Below are positions 11,915-37,797 of a DNA stretch of 64,000 nucleotides, piece by piece. The translations under genes and the position numbers were made by a program. This DNA comes from an uncultured Gammaproteobacteria bacterium (GTDB lineage: Bacteria > Pseudomonadota > Gammaproteobacteria > UBA9214). How positions within the stretch are numbered: the stretch's first letter is position 1; each line of letters starts with the position of its first letter. The stretch spans positions 65,770 through 129,769 of the forward strand of contig CAVOZZ010000009.1 of assembly GCA_963701505.1 (NCBI GenBank). The letters run 5' to 3'. The notes beneath the pieces are model-generated. The model was not told the DNA's origin. It saw only the letters and a program-made list of their open reading frames with translations, and made no database searches.

Positions 11915-12457
11915 ATGAGTGAACTGCTGGACAGACTGGTGCGCGATTTCGGTGTCACGGAGATCACCGAGCGCCTTCCGGCGATCACCACGCTGAAAGT
12001 GAGCAAGGAAAACGGCGAACGGCTGATCCGTGAACTGCGCGACCGCGAGGGCTTCACCCACCTGAATTTCATCGCCTGCACCGACTGGATCGAGGACGGC
12101 ATTTTCAGGCTGGTGTACATGCTGCACAACTACGACAGCAAACAGAACCTCGGCGTACACATCGACATCGACCGCGACAACGCCGAGATGACTTCCATCC
12201 ATACGCTGTGGGCGCAGGCCTGGACCTACCAGCGCGAACTGCGCGAGATGTACGGCATCCACTTTCCCGGCAGCCCGCGACTCGAGGAGAATTTCTGCCT
12301 CGAAGGCTGGGACGCAATGCCGCCGATGCGGCGTGATTTCGACACCGCGAAATACAGCGCGGAACGCTTCGGTCACCGCGAGGGCCGCGTCAGCCTGGTG
12401 CCGCGCGACCATATGAAGGTGCAGCTCTATCCGAATCGTGGAGGGGATAAGTCATGA
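11915..12457 (+). CDS. NuoC-like subunit (MbxK-like)
   Basis: 180 aa. Motifs FTHLNFIACTDW and TYQRELREMYGIHFPGSP are the NuoC/30 kDa family signature. Confidence 0.85.
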   Translation: MSELLDRLVRDFGVTEITERLPAITTLKVSKENGERLIRELRDREGFTHLNFIACTDWIEDGIFRLVYMLHNYDSKQNLGVHIDIDRDNAEMTSIHTLWAQAWTYQRELREMYGIHFPGSPRLEENFCLEGWDAMPPMRRDFDTAKYSAERFGHREGRVSLVPRDHMKVQLYPNRGGDKS

Positions 12458-13623
12458 CGTTATCAACCGGCCATTCCGCCGCGCTGGACTTCGCCCAGCC
12501 CGAACCGGTCGACCTGTCATCGGGTAAATACGTCAAGCTGTGGCAGGGTCCGCAGCATCCCGGCATCACCGGCAACATGTCGCTGGAACTGACACTGGAC
12601 GGCGACACCATCATCGAGTGCAAGACCCACGTCGGTTACCTGCACCGCGGCTTCGAGAAGCTGATGGAGCAGCGCAACTTTATCCAGAACTTCACCGTGG
12701 TGTGCCGCATCGCGGTTCCCGAACCGGCCTTCAACGAATACCTGTACGCGGCCGCGATCGAGGCGATCAGCGGCGTCGAGTCACCGCCGCGCGCGCAGTG
12801 GCTGCGCACGCTGAACCTCGAAATGATGCGCCTCGCCAGTTTCCTGATGTGGATCGGCGGCCAGGGCGGCGCCTTCGGCCAGTACACCGTGGCCAACTGG
12901 ACGCTCACCTACCGCGACTACGTGCTGGATCTGTTCGAGGAAATGACGGGCGCGCGCATCTACCACATGTACATGGTGCCCGGCGGCGTACGCGCCGGAC
13001 TGCCGGCTGGATTCGAGCAACGCATCCTCGAGCTGATGAACAACACCGACAAGCTGCTCGACCAGGTCGAGCGCGTGATGTACAACAACGTGGTGTTCAA
13101 GGCGCGCGCCAGGGGCCTCGGCGTGATTACCCCGGAACTGGTAGATCCGTACGGTGTGGTCGGTCCGAATGCGCGCGCCAGCGGTTTCCGCCGCGACCTG
13201 CGCAAGGACGAACCCTACCTGGTGTACGACCAGCTCGATTTCAGCGTCATCAGCGGCAGTGCCGGCGATGCCTACGAACGCGCCTGGCTGCGTTTGCAGG
13301 AAACCCGCCAGAGCATCAACCTGATCCGCCAGGTAATTGCCGGCGCACCGTCGGACGGTCCGTTCCAGGCAGACATGCCGAACTTGCTGCACTGGAAGGT
13401 GCCGGCCGGCGAGACCTACGTCAAGGCCGAGTGCACCCGCGGCGAATACGGCTACTACATGGTTACCGACGGCACCGAGATCGTGCGCCGCGTGCACGTG
13501 CGCGGTCCGAGCTACACCCATGCCATCGCATTGATGGAGCGCCTCGCGGTCGGCACCAACATCGCGGACATCGCCGGCCTGATGGTATCGCTGCACACCT
13601 ATCCGCCCGAGATTGAGAGGTAA
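12454..13623 (+). CDS. NuoD / [NiFe]-hydrogenase large-subunit-like catalytic subunit lacking the NiFe Cys ligand pairs (MbxL/Ehr-like)
   Basis: 389 aa. GPQHPGITGNMSLEL and GYLHRGFEKL are NuoD/group-4 motifs. The N-terminal RxCGxC position reads VVCRIAVPEP. The C-terminal DPCxxC position reads SLHTYPPEIER, with no Cys. Confidence 0.9.
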   Translation: MTLSTGHSAALDFAQPEPVDLSSGKYVKLWQGPQHPGITGNMSLELTLDGDTIIECKTHVGYLHRGFEKLMEQRNFIQNFTVVCRIAVPEPAFNEYLYAAAIEAISGVESPPRAQWLRTLNLEMMRLASFLMWIGGQGGAFGQYTVANWTLTYRDYVLDLFEEMTGARIYHMYMVPGGVRAGLPAGFEQRILELMNNTDKLLDQVERVMYNNVVFKARARGLGVITPELVDPYGVVGPNARASGFRRDLRKDEPYLVYDQLDFSVISGSAGDAYERAWLRLQETRQSINLIRQVIAGAPSDGPFQADMPNLLHWKVPAGETYVKAECTRGEYGYYMVTDGTEIVRRVHVRGPSYTHAIALMERLAVGTNIADIAGLMVSLHTYPPEIER

Positions 13624-13635
13624 GCAGTAAATATC

Positions 13636-15444
13636 ATGAGCCTGAAAGACCTGCTATCCCCGTTCTATGTCTGGCAACGCGCCTTCGAGAAACCCTATAC
13701 CTCCATCCGTCCGATCCAGGAGCGCCCCGGTGCGGCCGCCTATCGCGGCTTTCACATCAATATCAGCGAGGAATGCATCGGCTGCGGCACCTGCCACAAG
13801 ATCTGCCAGAACGACGCGATCGATATGGTCCGGGTCGAGGCATACGAAGGTCGCAGTGGCGACAGTGGCTTGCGCCCGCGCTTCGACTATGGCCGCTGCT
13901 GCTGGTGCGCCCTGTGCGTCGATATGTGTCCCGCCGGTTCCCTGCGCATGAGCAACGAGTACACCTGGATCACCAGCGACCCAACCACGTATCACTTCAC
14001 CGCGGGCGTTGAACACACCACCTGGCAGGAGAATCCGCTGGGCTACCGCCGCGCGGAAGGCTACCATCTCTACCCGCCCAAACGCATCGACATGGAGATG
14101 CGGCCACCGGCAGAGAGCGTACAGTCATTCGATGAAGTGGTGCTGGGCTACAGCGAGTCACAGGCGCTGCTGGAAGCCGACCGCTGCATCGAATGCGGCA
14201 TCTGCGTCGCCACCTGCCCGGCGCACATGGACGTTCCCGACTACATCCGCAGCATCCGTGACCGCGATTACGAGAAGGGTCTGCAGCTGATGTACCGCAC
14301 CAATCCCTTCCCCGCCACCTGCGGGCGCATCTGCACGCGCCGCTGCGAGTCGGTGTGCCCGGTTGGCATCCAGGGAGAACCGATCGCCATTCGCTGGCTG
14401 AAACGTTTCATCGTCGACCAGATCCAGCCGCAGGACTATGCGCGCATACTTGCCGACCAGAGCGGACACAGTGGCCGCCGCATCGCCATCATCGGCGCCG
14501 GCCCCGGTGGTCTGAGTGCCGCCTATTACCTGCGCAAGCAAGGCCACGCGGTGACGGTGTTCGAGGCGCAGGAAAGCGCCGGCGGCATGCTGCGCTACGG
14601 CGTGCCCAGCTACCGCCTGCCGGACGCGGATCTCGACAAGGACATCAATTACATCGTGTCACTCGGTGTGGACATCCGCTACAACACACGTGTCGGCAAG
14701 GACATCGCCTTCGAAGAACTGCTGCAGGACTACGATGCCCTGTTCCTGTCCACCGGCCTGTCGGTGCCCTCCAGCATGCGCATCCAGGGCGAGGACCATC
14801 CGCGCGTGCTGTCCGGCCTGCAGGTGCTTGCCGATGTCGCCAGCGGTCGCGACCCGGGCATCGGCCACAAGGTTGCCGTCATCGGCGGCGGCAACGTTGC
14901 CATGGACGCAGCACGGGTCGCGCGGCGTCTCGGCGCCGCTGTCACCATCCTCTACCGCCGTCGGATCGCCGACATGCCGGCGGATGTCGAGGAAATAAAC
15001 GAGTCACAGGAAGAAGGCTGCCGCATCGTCACCCAGGCGATCCCGGTTGAAATCATTGCGGCGGACAGCCCGCAACAGGTTGCGATCAAGTGGGGAGAAG
15101 CCGAAATGGTGCAGGACCCGAAAGGCGGCCGGCCACGCCCGGTGCTGCAGGAAGACAGGATGCATGTAGAAACTTACGACTGCATCGTCTCGGCCATCGG
15201 CCAAAGCAGCGACCTCGACTTCCTGTCAAAGGAGATACAGGACCAGCTGGCCATCGAGTGGGGCAAATTCACGCCGGGTGAATACCAGCACACATCGCTG
15301 GCGAAGATTTTCGCCGGCGGTGACGTCGCCAATCGCACCGCCGATGCCATCAGCGCCATCGAGGACGGCCATCATGCCGCGCGCGGCATCGACCGGTTCC
15401 TGAACCCGGATACCCGGATGCATACAGACGAGGAGGTGAACTGA
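13636..15444 (+). CDS. fusion protein: NuoI/MbxN-like 2x[4Fe-4S] ferredoxin domain + GltD/SudA/NfnB-like FAD/NAD(P)H oxidoreductase
   Basis: 602 aa. The N-terminus has CIGCGTCHKICQ and CCWCALCVDMCP. The GltD-type Fe-S region follows (CIECGICVATCP...CGRICTRRCESVCP). Then come two Rossmann motifs, IAIIGAGPGGLSAAYYL and VAVIGGGNVAMDAAR, and GGDV near the C-terminus. Confidence 0.85.
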   Translation: MSLKDLLSPFYVWQRAFEKPYTSIRPIQERPGAAAYRGFHINISEECIGCGTCHKICQNDAIDMVRVEAYEGRSGDSGLRPRFDYGRCCWCALCVDMCPAGSLRMSNEYTWITSDPTTYHFTAGVEHTTWQENPLGYRRAEGYHLYPPKRIDMEMRPPAESVQSFDEVVLGYSESQALLEADRCIECGICVATCPAHMDVPDYIRSIRDRDYEKGLQLMYRTNPFPATCGRICTRRCESVCPVGIQGEPIAIRWLKRFIVDQIQPQDYARILADQSGHSGRRIAIIGAGPGGLSAAYYLRKQGHAVTVFEAQESAGGMLRYGVPSYRLPDADLDKDINYIVSLGVDIRYNTRVGKDIAFEELLQDYDALFLSTGLSVPSSMRIQGEDHPRVLSGLQVLADVASGRDPGIGHKVAVIGGGNVAMDAARVARRLGAAVTILYRRRIADMPADVEEINESQEEGCRIVTQAIPVEIIAADSPQQVAIKWGEAEMVQDPKGGRPRPVLQEDRMHVETYDCIVSAIGQSSDLDFLSKEIQDQLAIEWGKFTPGEYQHTSLAKIFAGGDVANRTADAISAIEDGHHAARGIDRFLNPDTRMHTDEEVN

Positions 15445-15445
15445 C

Positions 15446-15892
15446 ATGAACAGCGTGGATGAAATACTCGACTATGCCATTGACCAGGAACAGCAGGCCG
15501 CTGACTTCTACGCGGAGCTGGCCGGCCGCGCCGAAAAGGCCGGCATGAAAGATATCCTGCTGGATTTCTCCGCAGAGGAACAAAGCCACAAGCAACGACT
15601 GCTGGCGGTAAAGGCCGGTGACCACGAGCTGACACCGGAACAGCAGGTGCTGGACCTGAAGATCTCCGACTACCTTGTCGAGGTCGGCGCCAGCGCCAAC
15701 ATCTCCTACCAGGACGCCCTGATCGTCGCCATGAAACGTGAACGTGCTGCCTTCCAGCTGTACAGCGACATGGCCGCAAAGGTTCCGGAGGGCCATCTGA
15801 AGGAAGTCCTGCAGGGCCTCGCCAAGGAAGAGGCCAAGCACAAGCTGTTCTTTGAATCCGAGTACGACGAGCGCGTCTTGATGGATAACTAG
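15446..15892 (+). CDS. rubrerythrin/ferritin-like diiron four-helix-bundle protein (no rubredoxin domain)
   Basis: 148 aa. Two E-x-x-H motifs (EEQSH, EEAKH), each preceded by a helix carrying a conserved Glu (ADFYAEL, MKRERAAF). The start lies 1 nt after the upstream stop. Confidence 0.7.
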   Translation: MNSVDEILDYAIDQEQQAADFYAELAGRAEKAGMKDILLDFSAEEQSHKQRLLAVKAGDHELTPEQQVLDLKISDYLVEVGASANISYQDALIVAMKRERAAFQLYSDMAAKVPEGHLKEVLQGLAKEEAKHKLFFESEYDERVLMDN

Positions 15893-16075
15893 TGCTCTTC
15901 CCGCCTGATACCAACGGTATGCTGAACTGTAGTTAAACTGGGCACCAAATTTTTTTACTGGCCACGGAAGCACACGGAATTACACGGAAAAAAGTATTTT
16001 ATGGTTTTTATTCTTCCGTGTTTTCCGTGTGTTTTCGTGGCAATCCTGTCCGTCTTTATCAGATTGAGGCAGTGC
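15890..16075. repeat. left copy of a ~190 bp inverted repeat flanking ppsA; contains the palindromic CACGGAA-rich core (15961-16041)
   Basis: Aligns by eye at roughly three-quarters identity with the reverse complement of 18600-18794. Matching stretches include tagtgctctt..., gctgaac, gggcacc(a/c)aattt, ccacggaagcacacgg and atcctgtccgtctttat(c/t)agattgaggcagt. Confidence 0.8.
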
Positions 16076-16158
16076 TCCGCAGGCTGGGCTTCGTACCTCA
16101 GCCCAACCTGCAAATGACTTTTTTCTGTATTTTCTAAATACACCCGGGGGGCAGACCA

Positions 16159-18582
16159 ATGCAGCAGTTCGAGTACGTACGCCGTTTTCGGGAGCTCGGC
16201 ATCGACGACGTGTCGCTGGTCGGCGGCAAGAATGCCTCACTGGGGGAGATGTACCAGGCCCTGTCGGGTGAAGGCGTCAGGGTTCCCAACGGCTTTGCCA
16301 CCACGGCACAGGCCTATCGCGACTACCTGACACACAACCAACTGGAGGCACCCATTCAGCAGGCGCTGGCACAGCTGGATGTCGATGATGTCGATGCGCT
16401 GGCCAAAACCGGCGCGCAGATACGCGGCTGGATCGTCGACGCGGAACTGCCGCCACAGCTGGTCAGCGAGATTACCGCTGCCTACGCGGAGATGACCGCA
16501 GAATACGGCGTTGATACCGATGTTGCCGTGCGCAGTTCGGCAACCGCCGAAGACCTGCCGGATGCCTCCTTTGCCGGCCAGCAGGAGACCTATCTGAATA
16601 TCTGCGGCACGGAGCACCTGCTGCGTACCTGCAAGCGGGTGCTGGCCTCGCTGTTCACGGACCGCGCCATTCATTACCGTGTCGACAAGGGCTTTGAGCA
16701 CATGAGCATTGCGCTGTCCATCGGAGTGCAGAAGATGGTGCGTTCCGACCTTGGTGCCTCGGGTGTGATGTTTACCCTCGACACGGAGAGCGGTTTCCGC
16801 GACGTGGTCATGGTCACCTCGGCCTACGGCCTGGGCGAGAATGTCGTACAGGGCGCGGTCAATCCGGACGAGTTCCTGGTGTTCAAGCCGACCCTGGAAC
16901 AGGAAAAGCGGCCCATTATCCGTCGCCACCTCGGTGAAAAGGCCATCAAGATGATCTACACAAAGGATCCGGTCACGGCCGAGGCCACCCGCAACGTCGC
17001 GGTGAAAAAGTCGGAACAGCAACGCTTCTCGATCAGCGATGACGAGGTGCTGCAGCTGGCGCGCTACGCCACCATCATCGAGCGTCACTATTCCGCACAT
17101 GCCGGCAAGCCGCGCCCCATGGATATTGAATGGGCAAAGGACGGCATCAGCGGTGAACTGTTTATCGTGCAGGCGCGCCCGGAAACCGTGCACTCGATGC
17201 GCAGCGATGCCTTCCAGGAGATCTACAGCATCAAGGAACGCGGCAAGGTACTGACACAGGGCAAGAGTGTCGGCGCCAAGGTGGGTGCCGGGCGGGCACG
17301 CATTATCCTCGAAGCGGCACACATGCATGACCTGCTGCCGGGCGAGGTGCTGGTCACCGATATTACCGACCCGGACTGGGAACCGGTCATGAAGATCGCC
17401 AGCGCCATTGTCACCAATCGTGGCGGCCGTGTCTGCCATGCGGCGATCGTAGCACGCGAACTCGGTATCCCGGCCGTGGTCGGCAGCGTTGACGCCACCC
17501 ATGACATCCCGGACGGCCAGGAGGTCACGGTCTCCTGTGTCGAGGGGGATACCGGTTTTGTCTATGAGGGCCTGCTGCCCTACTCCAGTGAACGGGTTGA
17601 CCTGGGCGGACTGCAGCGCCCGCAAACCCGCATTATGCTGATCGTCGGCAACCCGGTGCAGGCGCTGGAATTTGCGGCCTTCCCGAATGACGGCGTCGGT
17701 CTGGCGCGACTGGAATTCATCATCAACAACAGCATCGGCATTCACCCGCGTGCCATCCTGGAACACACCCGCCTGGACGAGGATATCCAGCAACAGATTG
17801 CCAGCCGCTCCGCAGGTTATGCCAGTCCACGCGATTTCTACATCAACCGGCTGGCCGAGGGCGTCGGCACCATTGCCGCGGCCTTCTATCCAAAACCGGT
17901 GACCGCTCGCCTCAGCGATTTCAAGTCAAATGAATACGCCGCCCTGCTCGGCGGTGAAGGTTTCGAGCCGCGCGAGGAAAACCCCATGATCGGCTTTCGC
18001 GGTGCCAGCCGCTATCACTCGGATGCCTTTGCAGAGTGTTTTGCACTGGAATGCGCCGCCATGAAGAAGGTGCGTGAGGAAATGGGGCTCGATAACCTGG
18101 AATTGATGATTCCCTTTGCCCGCACGGTCGGGGAAGTACAGCAGGTACTGGAGGTGATGTCACGGCAGGGCCTGCGGCGGGGAGAAAACGGACTGAAGAT
18201 CAAGCTGATGTGCGAGATCCCGGCCAATGCGCTACTCGCCAGCCAGTTTCTCGAACACTGTGACGGTTTCTCCATCGGTTCCAACGACCTGACCCAGCTG
18301 ACGCTCGGTGTGGACCGCGACTCCGGGTTGCTGAGCGGTTATGACGAACGCAACGAGGCCGTCACTGCCCTGATGGGGATGGCCATCAAGGCCTGCCAGG
18401 CAGCCGGCAAGTTTGTCGGTATCTGCGGGCAGGCGCCCTCCGATTTTCCGGAGGTTACCCGCTGGCTGGTGCAACAGGGGATCGAGTCCATTTCACTCAA
18501 CCCGGACAGTATTCTGAAGATGACCGGGGTCGTGCTGGAAATAGAACGCGAACTGCACCGGGGCAACAGCGACAGCCCTTGA
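16159..18582 (+). CDS. ppsA: phosphoenolpyruvate synthase (pyruvate, water dikinase)
   Basis: Uninterrupted 807 aa ORF. Motifs VGGKNASLGEMY (ATP-grasp N-terminus), TNRGGRVCHAAIVARELGIPAVVG (phosphohistidine domain) and the C-terminal PEP-utilising domain GFSIGSNDLTQL. Confidence 0.95.
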   Translation: MQQFEYVRRFRELGIDDVSLVGGKNASLGEMYQALSGEGVRVPNGFATTAQAYRDYLTHNQLEAPIQQALAQLDVDDVDALAKTGAQIRGWIVDAELPPQLVSEITAAYAEMTAEYGVDTDVAVRSSATAEDLPDASFAGQQETYLNICGTEHLLRTCKRVLASLFTDRAIHYRVDKGFEHMSIALSIGVQKMVRSDLGASGVMFTLDTESGFRDVVMVTSAYGLGENVVQGAVNPDEFLVFKPTLEQEKRPIIRRHLGEKAIKMIYTKDPVTAEATRNVAVKKSEQQRFSISDDEVLQLARYATIIERHYSAHAGKPRPMDIEWAKDGISGELFIVQARPETVHSMRSDAFQEIYSIKERGKVLTQGKSVGAKVGAGRARIILEAAHMHDLLPGEVLVTDITDPDWEPVMKIASAIVTNRGGRVCHAAIVARELGIPAVVGSVDATHDIPDGQEVTVSCVEGDTGFVYEGLLPYSSERVDLGGLQRPQTRIMLIVGNPVQALEFAAFPNDGVGLARLEFIINNSIGIHPRAILEHTRLDEDIQQQIASRSAGYASPRDFYINRLAEGVGTIAAAFYPKPVTARLSDFKSNEYAALLGGEGFEPREENPMIGFRGASRYHSDAFAECFALECAAMKKVREEMGLDNLELMIPFARTVGEVQQVLEVMSRQGLRRGENGLKIKLMCEIPANALLASQFLEHCDGFSIGSNDLTQLTLGVDRDSGLLSGYDERNEAVTALMGMAIKACQAAGKFVGICGQAPSDFPEVTRWLVQQGIESISLNPDSILKMTGVVLEIERELHRGNSDSP

Positions 18583-18599
18583 AGGCTTGCCGGCCGCTA

Positions 18600-18794
18600 G
18601 TACTGCCTCAATCTAATAAAGACGGACAGGATAGCCACGGAAGCACACGGGATTACACGGGATTACACGCAAAAAAGTATTTTATGGTATTTATTCTTCC
18701 GTGTTTTTCCGTGTGCTTCCGTGGCGATTAAATAAATTGGGTGCCCAACGTAATGTCGTTCAGCACCGGTTATTATCAGGTTGAAAGAGCACTA
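18600..18794. repeat. right copy (inverted) of the ppsA-flanking repeat; core 18634-18725 with a 10-bp tandem duplication (gattacacgg x2)
   Basis: See the left copy. The flanks are reverse-complemented relative to the left copy. The asymmetric centre of the core (aaaaaagtattttatggt.tttattcttccgtg) is in the same + orientation in both copies. Confidence 0.8.
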
Positions 18795-18810
18795 GCAGCA
18801 TACGCTACTC

Positions 18811-19809
18811 GTATTGCGCCTTGTAGTTTTCCAGGATCTTGATGTAGTTGGCGCGCTCGAAGGCGCCGGGATTGAGGCAGTTGACCTGGCTCATGGAGCC
18901 TCTTCAGCTGGGCCACGGAATCGTACTGCCTTGCCTCCATCCAGTCCTGCAGGCCTGTCCACCAGGGTGCGTGAGAAAGCCGATGCCGTTGCGCAGCATG
19001 CCGGAGGTGGTCATGACGGCATCCGCGCCGGCCAGCAGGTACTTGATGAGTTCCAGCGGGCTGTGCACGCCGGTGGTGGCGGCGAGCGAGGCGTTGATGC
19101 GGCCGTGCAGCACGCCGATCCACAGCAGCGGCAGGCGGATCTCGGCGGGCGTGCTGAGTTTCAGGTCGGTGATGACCTCCATTTCGTCCAGGTCCAGGTC
19201 CGGCTGGTAGAAGCGGTTGAACAGCACCAGCGCGTCGGCGCCGGCCTCGTCGAATTGCCGCGCCATGTTGCCGGTGGCGCTGAAGAAGGGGCTGAGTTTC
19301 ATGGCCACCGGGATGGAGACCGCCGCCTTCACCGCCTTGAGCACATCCAGGTAGCGCTGCTCGACCTCGCGCCCGTCCATGTAGAGGTTGGCGGGGATGT
19401 AGTAGGCGTTCAGTTCGATGCCGCTGGCGCCGGCATCCTGCATCAGGCGGGCGGTGTCCACCCAGCCCTCGTTGGTGATGCCGTTGAGGCTGCCGATGAC
19501 CGGGATGTCCACCGCCTCGGTGGCACGCCGCAGCAGGTTCAGGTATTCGTCCGGCCCGGTCTCGTAGTCCTCGAACTCCGGAAAGTAACTCAGCGACTCG
19601 GCATAGCTCTCGCTGCCCGAGGTGATCAGGTGCTCGATGGCCGCATTCTCGTGCTTGATCTGTTCCTCGAACAGCGAAAACATGACCACCGCCGCGGCGC
19701 CGGCATCCTCCATGCGCCTGAAGTTGTCGAGCTTCTCCGACAGGGGCGAGGCGGAGGCGACGACCGGGTTCTTCAGTTCCAGCCCCATGTAGGTGGTGCG
19801 CAGGTCCAT
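18811..19809 (-). pseudogene. dihydroorotate dehydrogenase-like (class 1 DHOD/DPD FMN-domain-like) protein, C-terminus disrupted by two frame changes
   Basis: ORF 18904..19809 is a TIM-barrel DHOD-like sequence (MGLELKNPVVASASPLS, GIELNAYYIP, VAMKLSPFF, LVLFNRFYQPDLD). The C-terminus continues in two other frames ([17 protein letters not shown], then [31 protein letters not shown]-stop at 18811-18813). Confidence 0.8.
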
Positions 19810-19837
19810 GGCGTTATCCTCTGTTATTCAGTTTCGC

Positions 19838-25141
<5,304 letters not shown>

Positions 25142-33036: not shown

Positions 33037-33110
33037 TGGCCAACGAAGCACACGGAAAGACACGGAACAATAAATGCCTGACTAGAAAGTTTTCCGTGCG
33101 CTTCCATGGC
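33037..33110. repeat. degenerate copy of the CACGGAA-rich palindromic element
   Basis: ggccaacgaagcacacggaaagacacggaac...gttttccgtgcgcttccatggc. It is intergenic, between the LolA-like gene and the first permease gene. Confidence 0.6.
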
Positions 33111-37695: not shown

Positions 37696-37797
37696 GCCAC
37701 GGAAACACACGGAATGACACGGAATTATTCCGGCAAGGCATTTCTTCTTCTGTGCCTTTCTGTGCCTTTCCGTGAGTTTCAGTGTGTTTCCGTCGCT
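37696..37797. repeat. degenerate copy of the CACGGAA-rich palindromic element
   Basis: ccacggaaacacacggaatgacacggaatt...ttccgtgagtttcagtgtgtttccgtcgc. It is intergenic, between the convergent OMP gene and cbbO. Confidence 0.6.

Follow-up and report, generated by a model that had tools for sequence, protein, structure and literature searches.

The ppsA locus and its two repeats

In a stretch of 64,000 nucleotides from an uncultured gammaproteobacterium of the lineage UBA9214 (contig CAVOZZ010000009.1, positions 65,770 to 129,769 of the forward strand), ppsA, the gene for phosphoenolpyruvate (PEP) synthase, lies between two repeats of about 190 bp that are inverted with respect to each other. 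The whole stretch is referred to here as the window, and positions are given in its own numbering. An earlier note on this DNA took the arrangement for a cassette that could be inverted or excised. The repeats are presented below as two copies, very probably, of a gene-less miniature inverted-repeat transposable element (MITE), which would have landed next to a resident ppsA.

From the genes present, the locus can be divided into three parts. In the centre, ppsA (16159-18582, + strand) encodes a protein of 807 amino acids (aa) with three full Pfam domains (PPDK_N, PEP-utilizers and PEP-utilizers_C) and 96% identity to its closest relative; it is intact, as the earlier note had stated. Upstream, there is an operon for a Complex1_49kDa-type subunit, an Fe-S flavoprotein and rubrerythrin, the last from the rubrerythrin-like gene (15446-15892, + strand; 148 aa, Pfam PF02915). 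Downstream, a DHOD-like gene (18805-19809, - strand; Pfam DHO_dh, 333 aa in relatives) and a gene for pyruvate:ferredoxin oxidoreductase (PFOR) converge on ppsA, whose product leads from pyruvate to PEP, within the region 12454-21873. The pairing of ppsA with an adjoining PFOR gene is conserved in the clade, and this gene context fits metabolically.

When positions 15880-16090 on the + strand are aligned with positions 18585-18805 on the - strand, the mean column identity is 84% over 225 columns, in agreement with the description of the two segments as reverse complements in the earlier note; a repeat finder resolves the inverted arms into ungapped matches of 54 nt at 87%, 52 nt at 90% and 27 nt at 81% identity. 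The refined limits are 15889-16078 for the left copy and 18597-18795 for the right copy. Their outer ends lie close to the stop codons of the neighbouring genes, which had also been pointed out before. On the left, a 150-codon open frame closes with the rubrerythrin TAG (15890-15892), which forms part of the terminal CTAG of the element, and on the right the true end of the DHOD-like gene (18805-18807) is located 9 nt past the copy. The TGA of ppsA (18580-18582) is 14 nt ahead of the right copy.

The left copy reads from an A arm to a B arm on the + strand, carries a loop of type F (the two loop types are defined below) and is 86.4% identical to the family consensus. Its left terminal inverted repeat, consisting of CTAG and an end of the TL type (15889-15922, + strand), differs from the TL consensus at 6 of 30 nt, and its right terminal inverted repeat, of the TR type (16045-16078, + strand), differs from the TR consensus at 4 of 30 nt. 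The right end of this copy is decayed, with GCAGTGCTCC where GCAGTACTAG is expected. The right copy is placed on the - strand, running from B arm to A arm when read on the + strand, and its loop is of type R when the arms of this copy serve as reference; with 90.5% identity to the consensus, it retains both terminal CTAGs intact and contains an extra 10-nt unit in one arm.

Each repeat encloses a palindromic core rich in CACGGAA, as the earlier note had recognised, with decamer arrays in both arms of both copies. In the left copy (15961-16041), the palindrome consists of GC, three CACGGAA decamers, an AT-rich loop of 24 nt (aaaagtattttatggtttttattc, 15990-16013, + strand), three TTCCGTG decamers and GC. 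In the right copy (18634-18725), one arm has four decamers and the other three, and the 24-nt loop (18673-18696, + strand) agrees with that of the left copy in absolute orientation. A sequence of 32 nt formed by the loop and the right-hand heptamer, AAAAAGTATTTTATGGTnTTTATTCTTCCGTG, occurs twice on the + strand (15989-16020 and 18672-18703), against no occurrence expected in shuffles, which bears out the earlier observation that the centres share one absolute orientation while their flanks are inverted.

The CACGGAA palindrome is not confined to the ppsA locus. The pattern CACGGAAN3CACGGAA, allowing up to two mismatches, has 17 matches against 0.6 expected, and two further decamer palindromes with other flanks are found in the window, one at 33041-33108, without A and B arms, and another at 37698-37794. 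The latter resembles the L007 family, a composite (37698-37794, L007:3480-3660, L040 and L042) in which the CACGGAA core sits within longer inverted repeats containing ...CTTACTTAAG; the inner flanks common to the window copy at 37698 and this composite family are ccttaagaaaccctgc and ...tatattgatga.

A family of gene-less elements bordered by CTAG

A metagenome scan in which the junction between the A arm and the core served as the query found 31 stretches. Together with the copies flanking ppsA and those of L059, a more distant ppsA locus described below, these stretches provide a full-length set of 25 distinct copies, which are 86-99.5% identical to a consensus of 189 bp. They occupy about 20 distinct insertion sites, in related metagenomes and with unrelated flanks (six of the contigs come from one sample), and the similarity between copies ends exactly at CTAG on both sides. 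The consensus ends read CTAG-TGCTCTTTCAACCTGATAATAACGGAT ... ATCCGTCTTTATTAGATTGAGGCAGTA-CTAG and form imperfect terminal inverted repeats of about 30 nt, the left end (TL) matching the right end (TR) at 23 of 34 positions without gaps; both ends are conserved across the copies. The consensus is devoid of coding capacity, its longest stop-free stretch being 57 codons, and the middle of the element is taken up by a palindrome of 80 nt, whose 24-nt AT-rich loop is enclosed by arms of three CACGGAA decamers each. Every TL or TR end finds its partner at a distance of 178-199 bp, except in one copy of 385 bp (L156:1922-2306), in whose loop a second MITE is nested. This second element, of about 196 bp and also present in L138 and L140, has ends GTAACTATTCAGCTC.../...GAGGTGAATAGTTAC and a CACGGAA core of its own.

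The elements flanking ppsA belong to a kind already known, the MITE, within which they form a new family. A DDE transposase provided by another part of the genome would cut out the whole element and paste it into CTAG, and the duplication generated would comprise either the TA within CTAG, as in the IS630 type, or the entire CTAG, as in the IS5 type. The CTAG borders fit both patterns, which are not separable from the sequence alone, and we infer a transposase of one or the other family.

CTAG is a rare word in the window, with 15 occurrences, compared with 232 expected on base composition and 48 under a Markov model, and 3 of these 15 are ends of the MITE. The TAG of a terminal CTAG closes an open frame of at least 100 codons at about 14 of the about 20 insertion sites, and 5-7 of the 12 other CTAGs in the window also end long open frames (e.g., at 1022, 9815, 37850 and 60658). 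The copies sit at gene ends because CTAG is rare in the genome and many of the surviving sites overlap TAG stop codons. An element that inserts specifically at CTAG, in a genome poor in this word, will persist mainly at sites shared with a stop codon; insertion at such a site is harmless, and hits fall repeatedly on the same few sites, in either orientation. In the window, one copy would have been inserted on the rubrerythrin stop codon and the other in the short stretch that separates ppsA from the DHOD-like gene converging on it, with ppsA already present before the copies landed.

Placement at the 3' ends of genes is also a property that host regulatory modules might have, for instance hairpins that act as bidirectional transcript ends or arrays that bind a protein, and the stability of the structures formed here agrees with such a role. 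An RNA copy of either strand of the element forms a hairpin of -66 to -83 kcal/mol, with z-scores from -5 to -10.6. Moreover, about 35 nt separate the element from the start codon of ppsA in L123, one of the relatives compared below, and with so short a gap the transcription of ppsA must traverse the element or begin in it. However, the hairpin is not followed by a U tract, as expected of an intrinsic terminator: the tails are not T-runs, and a terminator scan of 15700-18950 gave no terminator-like match within the elements. A sigma-70 promoter scan of the same region gave no promoter-like site, and no Rfam family matched the whole window at gathering scores, the locus itself producing solely sub-threshold generic hairpin hits to miRNA models at E values up to 1. 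The sister lineages of the filled loci are empty at the same sites, and the sharp ends, the unrelated flanks and the CTAG borders likewise speak against modules of the host, which makes this explanation quite unlikely. The very stable hairpin may have a secondary effect on the transcripts that flank it. In the A arm, TGGGCACC-N5-TTTA resembles a sigma-54 motif, but this resemblance, noticed by eye, was dropped as too weak. A literature search for the heptamer and for GCCACGGAA/TTCCGTGGC returned unrelated papers alone.

Among known systems, Correia elements (CREE/NEMIS) of Neisseria are dispersed units of about 100-160 bp with terminal inverted repeats and TA borders, which often adjoin genes, are co-transcribed with them and form long hairpins. 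They belong to a different host group and have no sequence relation to the element described here, and neither a core of decamer arrays nor loop flipping is known from them. REPIN/REP doublets and ERIC share with the present element their intergenic location, their hairpins and their high copy number, but the defining features of REPs, a GTAG-type head and a RAYT partner gene, are both not seen here, and the arms of the present element are made of tandem 10-nt units and not of a single short palindrome. IS630 targets CTAG and duplicates TA, and RUP of Streptococcus pneumoniae is a MITE derived from IS630/Tc1-mariner. IS630-derived MITEs such as RUP and the element described here are both short and have terminal inverted repeats, and the CTAG...CTAG borders of the latter fit a TA duplication; neither an IS630-type transposase nor a full-length relative of the element was found in the loci examined (1.2 Mb).

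A precedent is MITEPsy1 of Pseudomonas syringae pv. phaseolicola, which is also small and gene-less, with terminal inverted repeats and CTAG or YTAA on both sides. This MITE, of 100 nt and derived from the IS5 family, has 18-nt repeats that resemble those of ISPsy2 and duplicates CTAG or YTAA upon insertion (PMC3189936). The element described here differs from it in its length of 189 nt, in having no known parent insertion sequence and in its inner palindrome of heptamer arrays. Its ends are unlike the MITEPsy1/ISPsy2 repeats printed in that study (PMC3189936), and its borders are compatible with an IS5-type YTAR/CTAG duplication.

ppsA and the elements among relatives

The locus was compared across contigs carrying graded relatives of ppsA, seven of which have at least 90% protein identity. 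In L121/L122 (ppsA 96%), the DHOD-like and PFOR genes are found downstream and the end of the rubrerythrin-like gene upstream, with no element on either side and 13 nt between the stop codons of ppsA and the DHOD-like gene. In L163 (94%), the gene order is exactly that of the window and elements are also absent; the two spacers measure 74 and 38 nt, the latter between ppsA and the DHOD-like gene, and the rubrerythrin stop reads ...gacaaCTAGggcc, with a lone CTAG where the left copy of the window begins. CTAG flanks nearly all copies on both sides, compared with the one CTAG of this empty allele, and the flank past the left copy has diverged. In L123-125 (94%, three samples), the gene order is again exactly that of the window and both sites are filled. 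The right site has the same flanking sequence as in the window, with the copy in the opposite orientation down to the outermost bases, and the two copies of this lineage are direct repeats. Finally, L126 (92%) and L127/128 (90%) have another upstream neighbour, the DHOD-like and PFOR genes downstream, and no elements.

In the ppsA tree, the window, with both copies, is the sister of L121, with none, and L123, with both copies, is the sister of L163, with none. Since each sister pair has one filled and one empty member, the elements come and go at the same two sites: they have been gained, lost or re-inserted there, with ppsA fixed in one orientation. At a greater distance, L059 (80% nucleotide identity in ppsA) has a whole left repeat (87%) upstream of ppsA, adjoining a different upstream gene. 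Between ppsA and a downstream MITE copy at the end of this contig, there is a palindromic repeat of about 300 bp (TTAACCCGCACTTCTCACCGCG ... CGTGGTGAGAAATGCGGGTTAA, L059:4220-4520).

According to the cassette idea of the earlier note, the two repeats would be recombination sites that invert or excise the 2.5-kb ppsA segment. The geometry does fit, with two inverted repeats of about 190 bp around one gene between convergent operons, but the comparative data contradict it. Throughout the seven relatives at or above 90% identity, neither the orientation of ppsA with respect to the DHOD-like and PFOR genes nor its set of right-hand neighbours changes, four lineages lack both repeats, and the copies of L123-125 are direct and not inverted. 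Because the orientation is fixed across the related loci compared, an outcome that the earlier note itself had proposed as decisive against its idea, the cassette is refuted by that author's own measure. Furthermore, the longest uninterrupted match between the two copies in the window is about 19 nt, short of the roughly 23-27 bp that RecA-dependent exchange usually needs, and a domain search detected no recombinase gene in 12.4-21.9 kb. An invertible or excisable ppsA is, in view of this, extremely improbable. The other proposal of the note, that ppsA was inserted into a shared terminator, is likewise not supported: in the same lineages (L121/122, L163, L126 and L127/128) ppsA is in place without the element, and the repeats belong to a mobile element dispersed over about 20 unrelated sites.

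The two copies could also be regarded as the ends of a composite transposon that brought ppsA to its present position, considering that the window, L123-125 and L059, three lineages in all, have a copy on each side of ppsA and that the upstream gene differs in L059. Nevertheless, ppsA is located at the same place without any copies in L163 and L121, and its adjacency to the DHOD-like and PFOR genes is kept in every relative of 90% identity or above that allowed the check. In L059, the downstream copy is found 376 nt past ppsA, at the contig end and amid other repeats, and the copies themselves are gene-less and encode no transposase. Transport of ppsA by a composite transposon is, on balance, very unlikely.

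The quality of the assembly deserves separate attention, as the window sequence has many indel errors. The PFOR gene (19858-22632, - strand) presents at least six reading-frame changes relative to L121, and the DHOD-like gene, 88% identical by tblastn to the L123 protein over 336 columns, is broken by a local double frameshift at about 18916-18990 (- strand). In relatives, both genes are intact (1199-1204 aa and 333 aa, respectively), and their frameshifts in the window are probably indel errors of the assembly and not signs of pseudogenes. A selenocysteine codon was considered for the apparent in-frame TGA of the DHOD-like gene (18904-18906) and rejected, since about 25 residues around it are out of frame relative to L123. 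These errors might suggest that the repeats or their orientation were mis-assembled as well. However, indel errors cannot make repeats of 190 bp, and three independent assemblies (L123, L124 and L125) hold both copies at the same two sites, which leaves an assembly artefact with a probability close to nil.

Regarding the centre of the elements, the earlier note had proposed that the core was either flipped relative to its flanks or acquired independently; the comparison of copies sustains the first possibility and argues against the second. With the outer arms as reference, the F form reads gca, tta or tga, the loop aaaagtattttatggtatttattc, ttt and tgc, and the R form reads gca, aaa, the loop gaataaataccataaaatactttt, taa or tca, and tgc. 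R corresponds to F with the segment spacer-heptamer-loop-heptamer-spacer reverse-complemented, the spacers changing from tta|ttt to aaa|taa or from tga|ttt to aaa|tca. As the inner spacers swap as reverse complements, the difference between the centres is a true inversion within the inner palindrome and not a separate acquisition. The F form is found in 20 of the 25 full-length copies and the R form in 5, some of them close to the consensus (L131, 99.5%); R-like copies outside the full-length set are present in L134 and L143. Upstream of ppsA, the window has an F copy and L123 an R copy, both with the variant end GCAGTGC, which suggests that the two may be a single insertion that was flipped later.

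The segment in the inner palindrome would invert occasionally, likely through recombination or template switching between the outer stems, which are perfect over 19 nt. The inner spacers are perfectly complementary in some copies (aaa/ttt in L129 and tga/tca in L147), and the number of decamer units varies from two to four across copies; both features would follow if, in replication or repair, one arm served as template for the other. Segments enclosed by a perfect inverted repeat that occur in both orientations, in copies otherwise identical, are known from the minute inversions in hairpin loops of chloroplast non-coding DNA and from the flip/flop of parvovirus terminal repeats. The element described here has the same kind of two-orientation segment, but inside a bacterial MITE. 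A further observation concerns L145 and L154, whose copies occupy one orthologous site with the same flanks and have loop alleles that differ at several positions, each allele also being found in copies at other sites; this points to gene conversion among copies or to a replacement at that site.

The interpretation of each repeat of about 190 bp as one copy of a gene-less, CTAG-inserting MITE of 189 bp, next to a resident ppsA, is very probably correct. It draws on the family of copies, on their sharp ends and CTAG borders, on the polymorphism in presence and orientation, and on the signature of inversion. Several points weigh against it. No autonomous element or transposase with these ends was found in the 1.2 Mb of collected loci, where a parent element would be expected to carry the end sequences GTGCTCTTTCAACCTGATAATAACGG and GTACTGCCTCAATCTAATAAAGACGG; in the same loci there is no TL...TR pair of more than 385 bp and there are no unpaired or widely spaced ends. 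The consensus element gave no blastn match against plasmid records. There is no pair of filled and empty alleles in which both flanks match, and CTAG may be the outermost part of the inverted repeats; for lack of such a clean pair, duplication of TA or CTAG is indistinguishable from a CTAG that belongs to the repeats. The common origin of the left copies of the window and L123 is moderately supported, through the end variant GCAGTGC that both contain. In addition, most of the other copies come from short-read metagenome assemblies, in which mosaic flanks may be chimeric joins. One MITE copy is joined to differing combinations of left and right flanks across samples in L149, L155 and L158, and in L146 the 3' end of ppsA and the element are followed by an unrelated gene; these mosaics may be either real rearrangements at the repeat or chimeric joins of metagenome assembly.

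The inner palindrome and GxxExxY genes

A scan of a genome collection for three phased heptamers found at least 120 loci, distributed over Gamma- and Betaproteobacteria, Planctomycetes, Verrucomicrobia and other phyla. The matches listed, from 120 loci, contain 92 arm pairs, of which 89 were analysed; GC..GC brackets 81 of these, and about one quarter of the arm pairs lie within longer inverted repeats. Given that only this quarter does so, the core is usually a free-standing unit. The cores flanking ppsA have the same array layout, that is, GC, at least two CACGGAA-type units 10 nt apart, a loop, inverted units and GC. Arm pairs more than 300 nt apart occur in L083, where 1.7 kb separates them, and in L077 and L056.

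In two of the loci (L077:3935-4411 and L056:438-847), the loop between the arms is about 0.4 kb long and encodes a protein of 120-123 aa, with scores of 138-143 bits against TIGR04256 (GxxExxY protein) and PF13366 (PDDEXK_3). From the side of the protein, four GxxExxY members were picked by protein similarity alone. In two of them (P0159 and P0208), the gene is located exactly between CACGGAA arms, P0159 being present in at least two different upstream contexts and also in tandem elements. In the other two (P0230 and P0224), CACGGAC/CACAGAC heptamer arrays are found around the gene, with P0230 as a looser fit. Among plasmid hits, CACAGAG arms flank the gene on both sides in Bacteroides (L165), a CGCGGAT palindrome adjoins it in Gemmatirosa (L167), and Persicobacter has AATCC arrays as direct repeats and a Fusobacteria plasmid solely a direct repeat of 22 nt. 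The gene thus lies between inverted arrays in six lineages (L056, L077, P0159, P0208, Bacteroides L165 and, more loosely, P0230), and whole palindromes of variant heptamers adjoin it in P0224 and Gemmatirosa. Depending on the lineage, the heptamer is CACGGAA, CACAGAC, CACAGAG or CGCGGAT, phased at 10 nt (loci L077, L056, L164-L167 and L168-L200).

The GxxExxY family conserves D66, E76 and K78, the catalytic D...ExK, and its structural model (predicted local distance difference test score, pLDDT, of 93.5) has Cas4 (4ic1), lambda exonuclease, MGME1 and RecE as the closest solved folds. In a survey of the PD-(D/E)XK proteins, PDDEXK_3 was listed as a family of unknown function with multiple transfers (PMC3424549). 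No GxxExxY gene was detected in the window by hmmsearch, a tblastn search against phages gave no match, and the link between the palindrome and GxxExxY was not found described in the searchable literature.

The arms that bracket GxxExxY genes and the cores at ppsA have the same GC, CACGGAA ... TTCCGTG, GC order, but the cores at ppsA enclose a loop of only 24 nt. This resemblance in sequence is best taken as a lead, not as a demonstration, that the core at ppsA may be a gene-less relative of the GxxExxY units, which would have joined a CTAG-targeting MITE before this MITE spread. It is quite conceivable, though somewhat short of probable, that a selfish element of about 0.5 kb, in which a GxxExxY nuclease gene lies between heptamer arrays that would be the recognition sites of the nuclease, gave rise to the inner palindrome as a derivative without the gene.

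For the ppsA locus, these results remove a tempting reading of the gene as mobile or switchable, and what varies among close relatives are the junk-like repeats that flank it. If the origin proposed for the inner palindrome is true, the abundant palindromes found across many phyla would be the non-autonomous offspring of a GxxExxY element, which may also ride within other MITEs, as at ppsA, with centres that flip between two orientations. Such a link would tie the widespread GxxExxY family, of unknown function, to a defined DNA structure across many phyla, and the function of this family would thereby become directly testable, through binding or cleavage of the heptamer arrays and through mobility.

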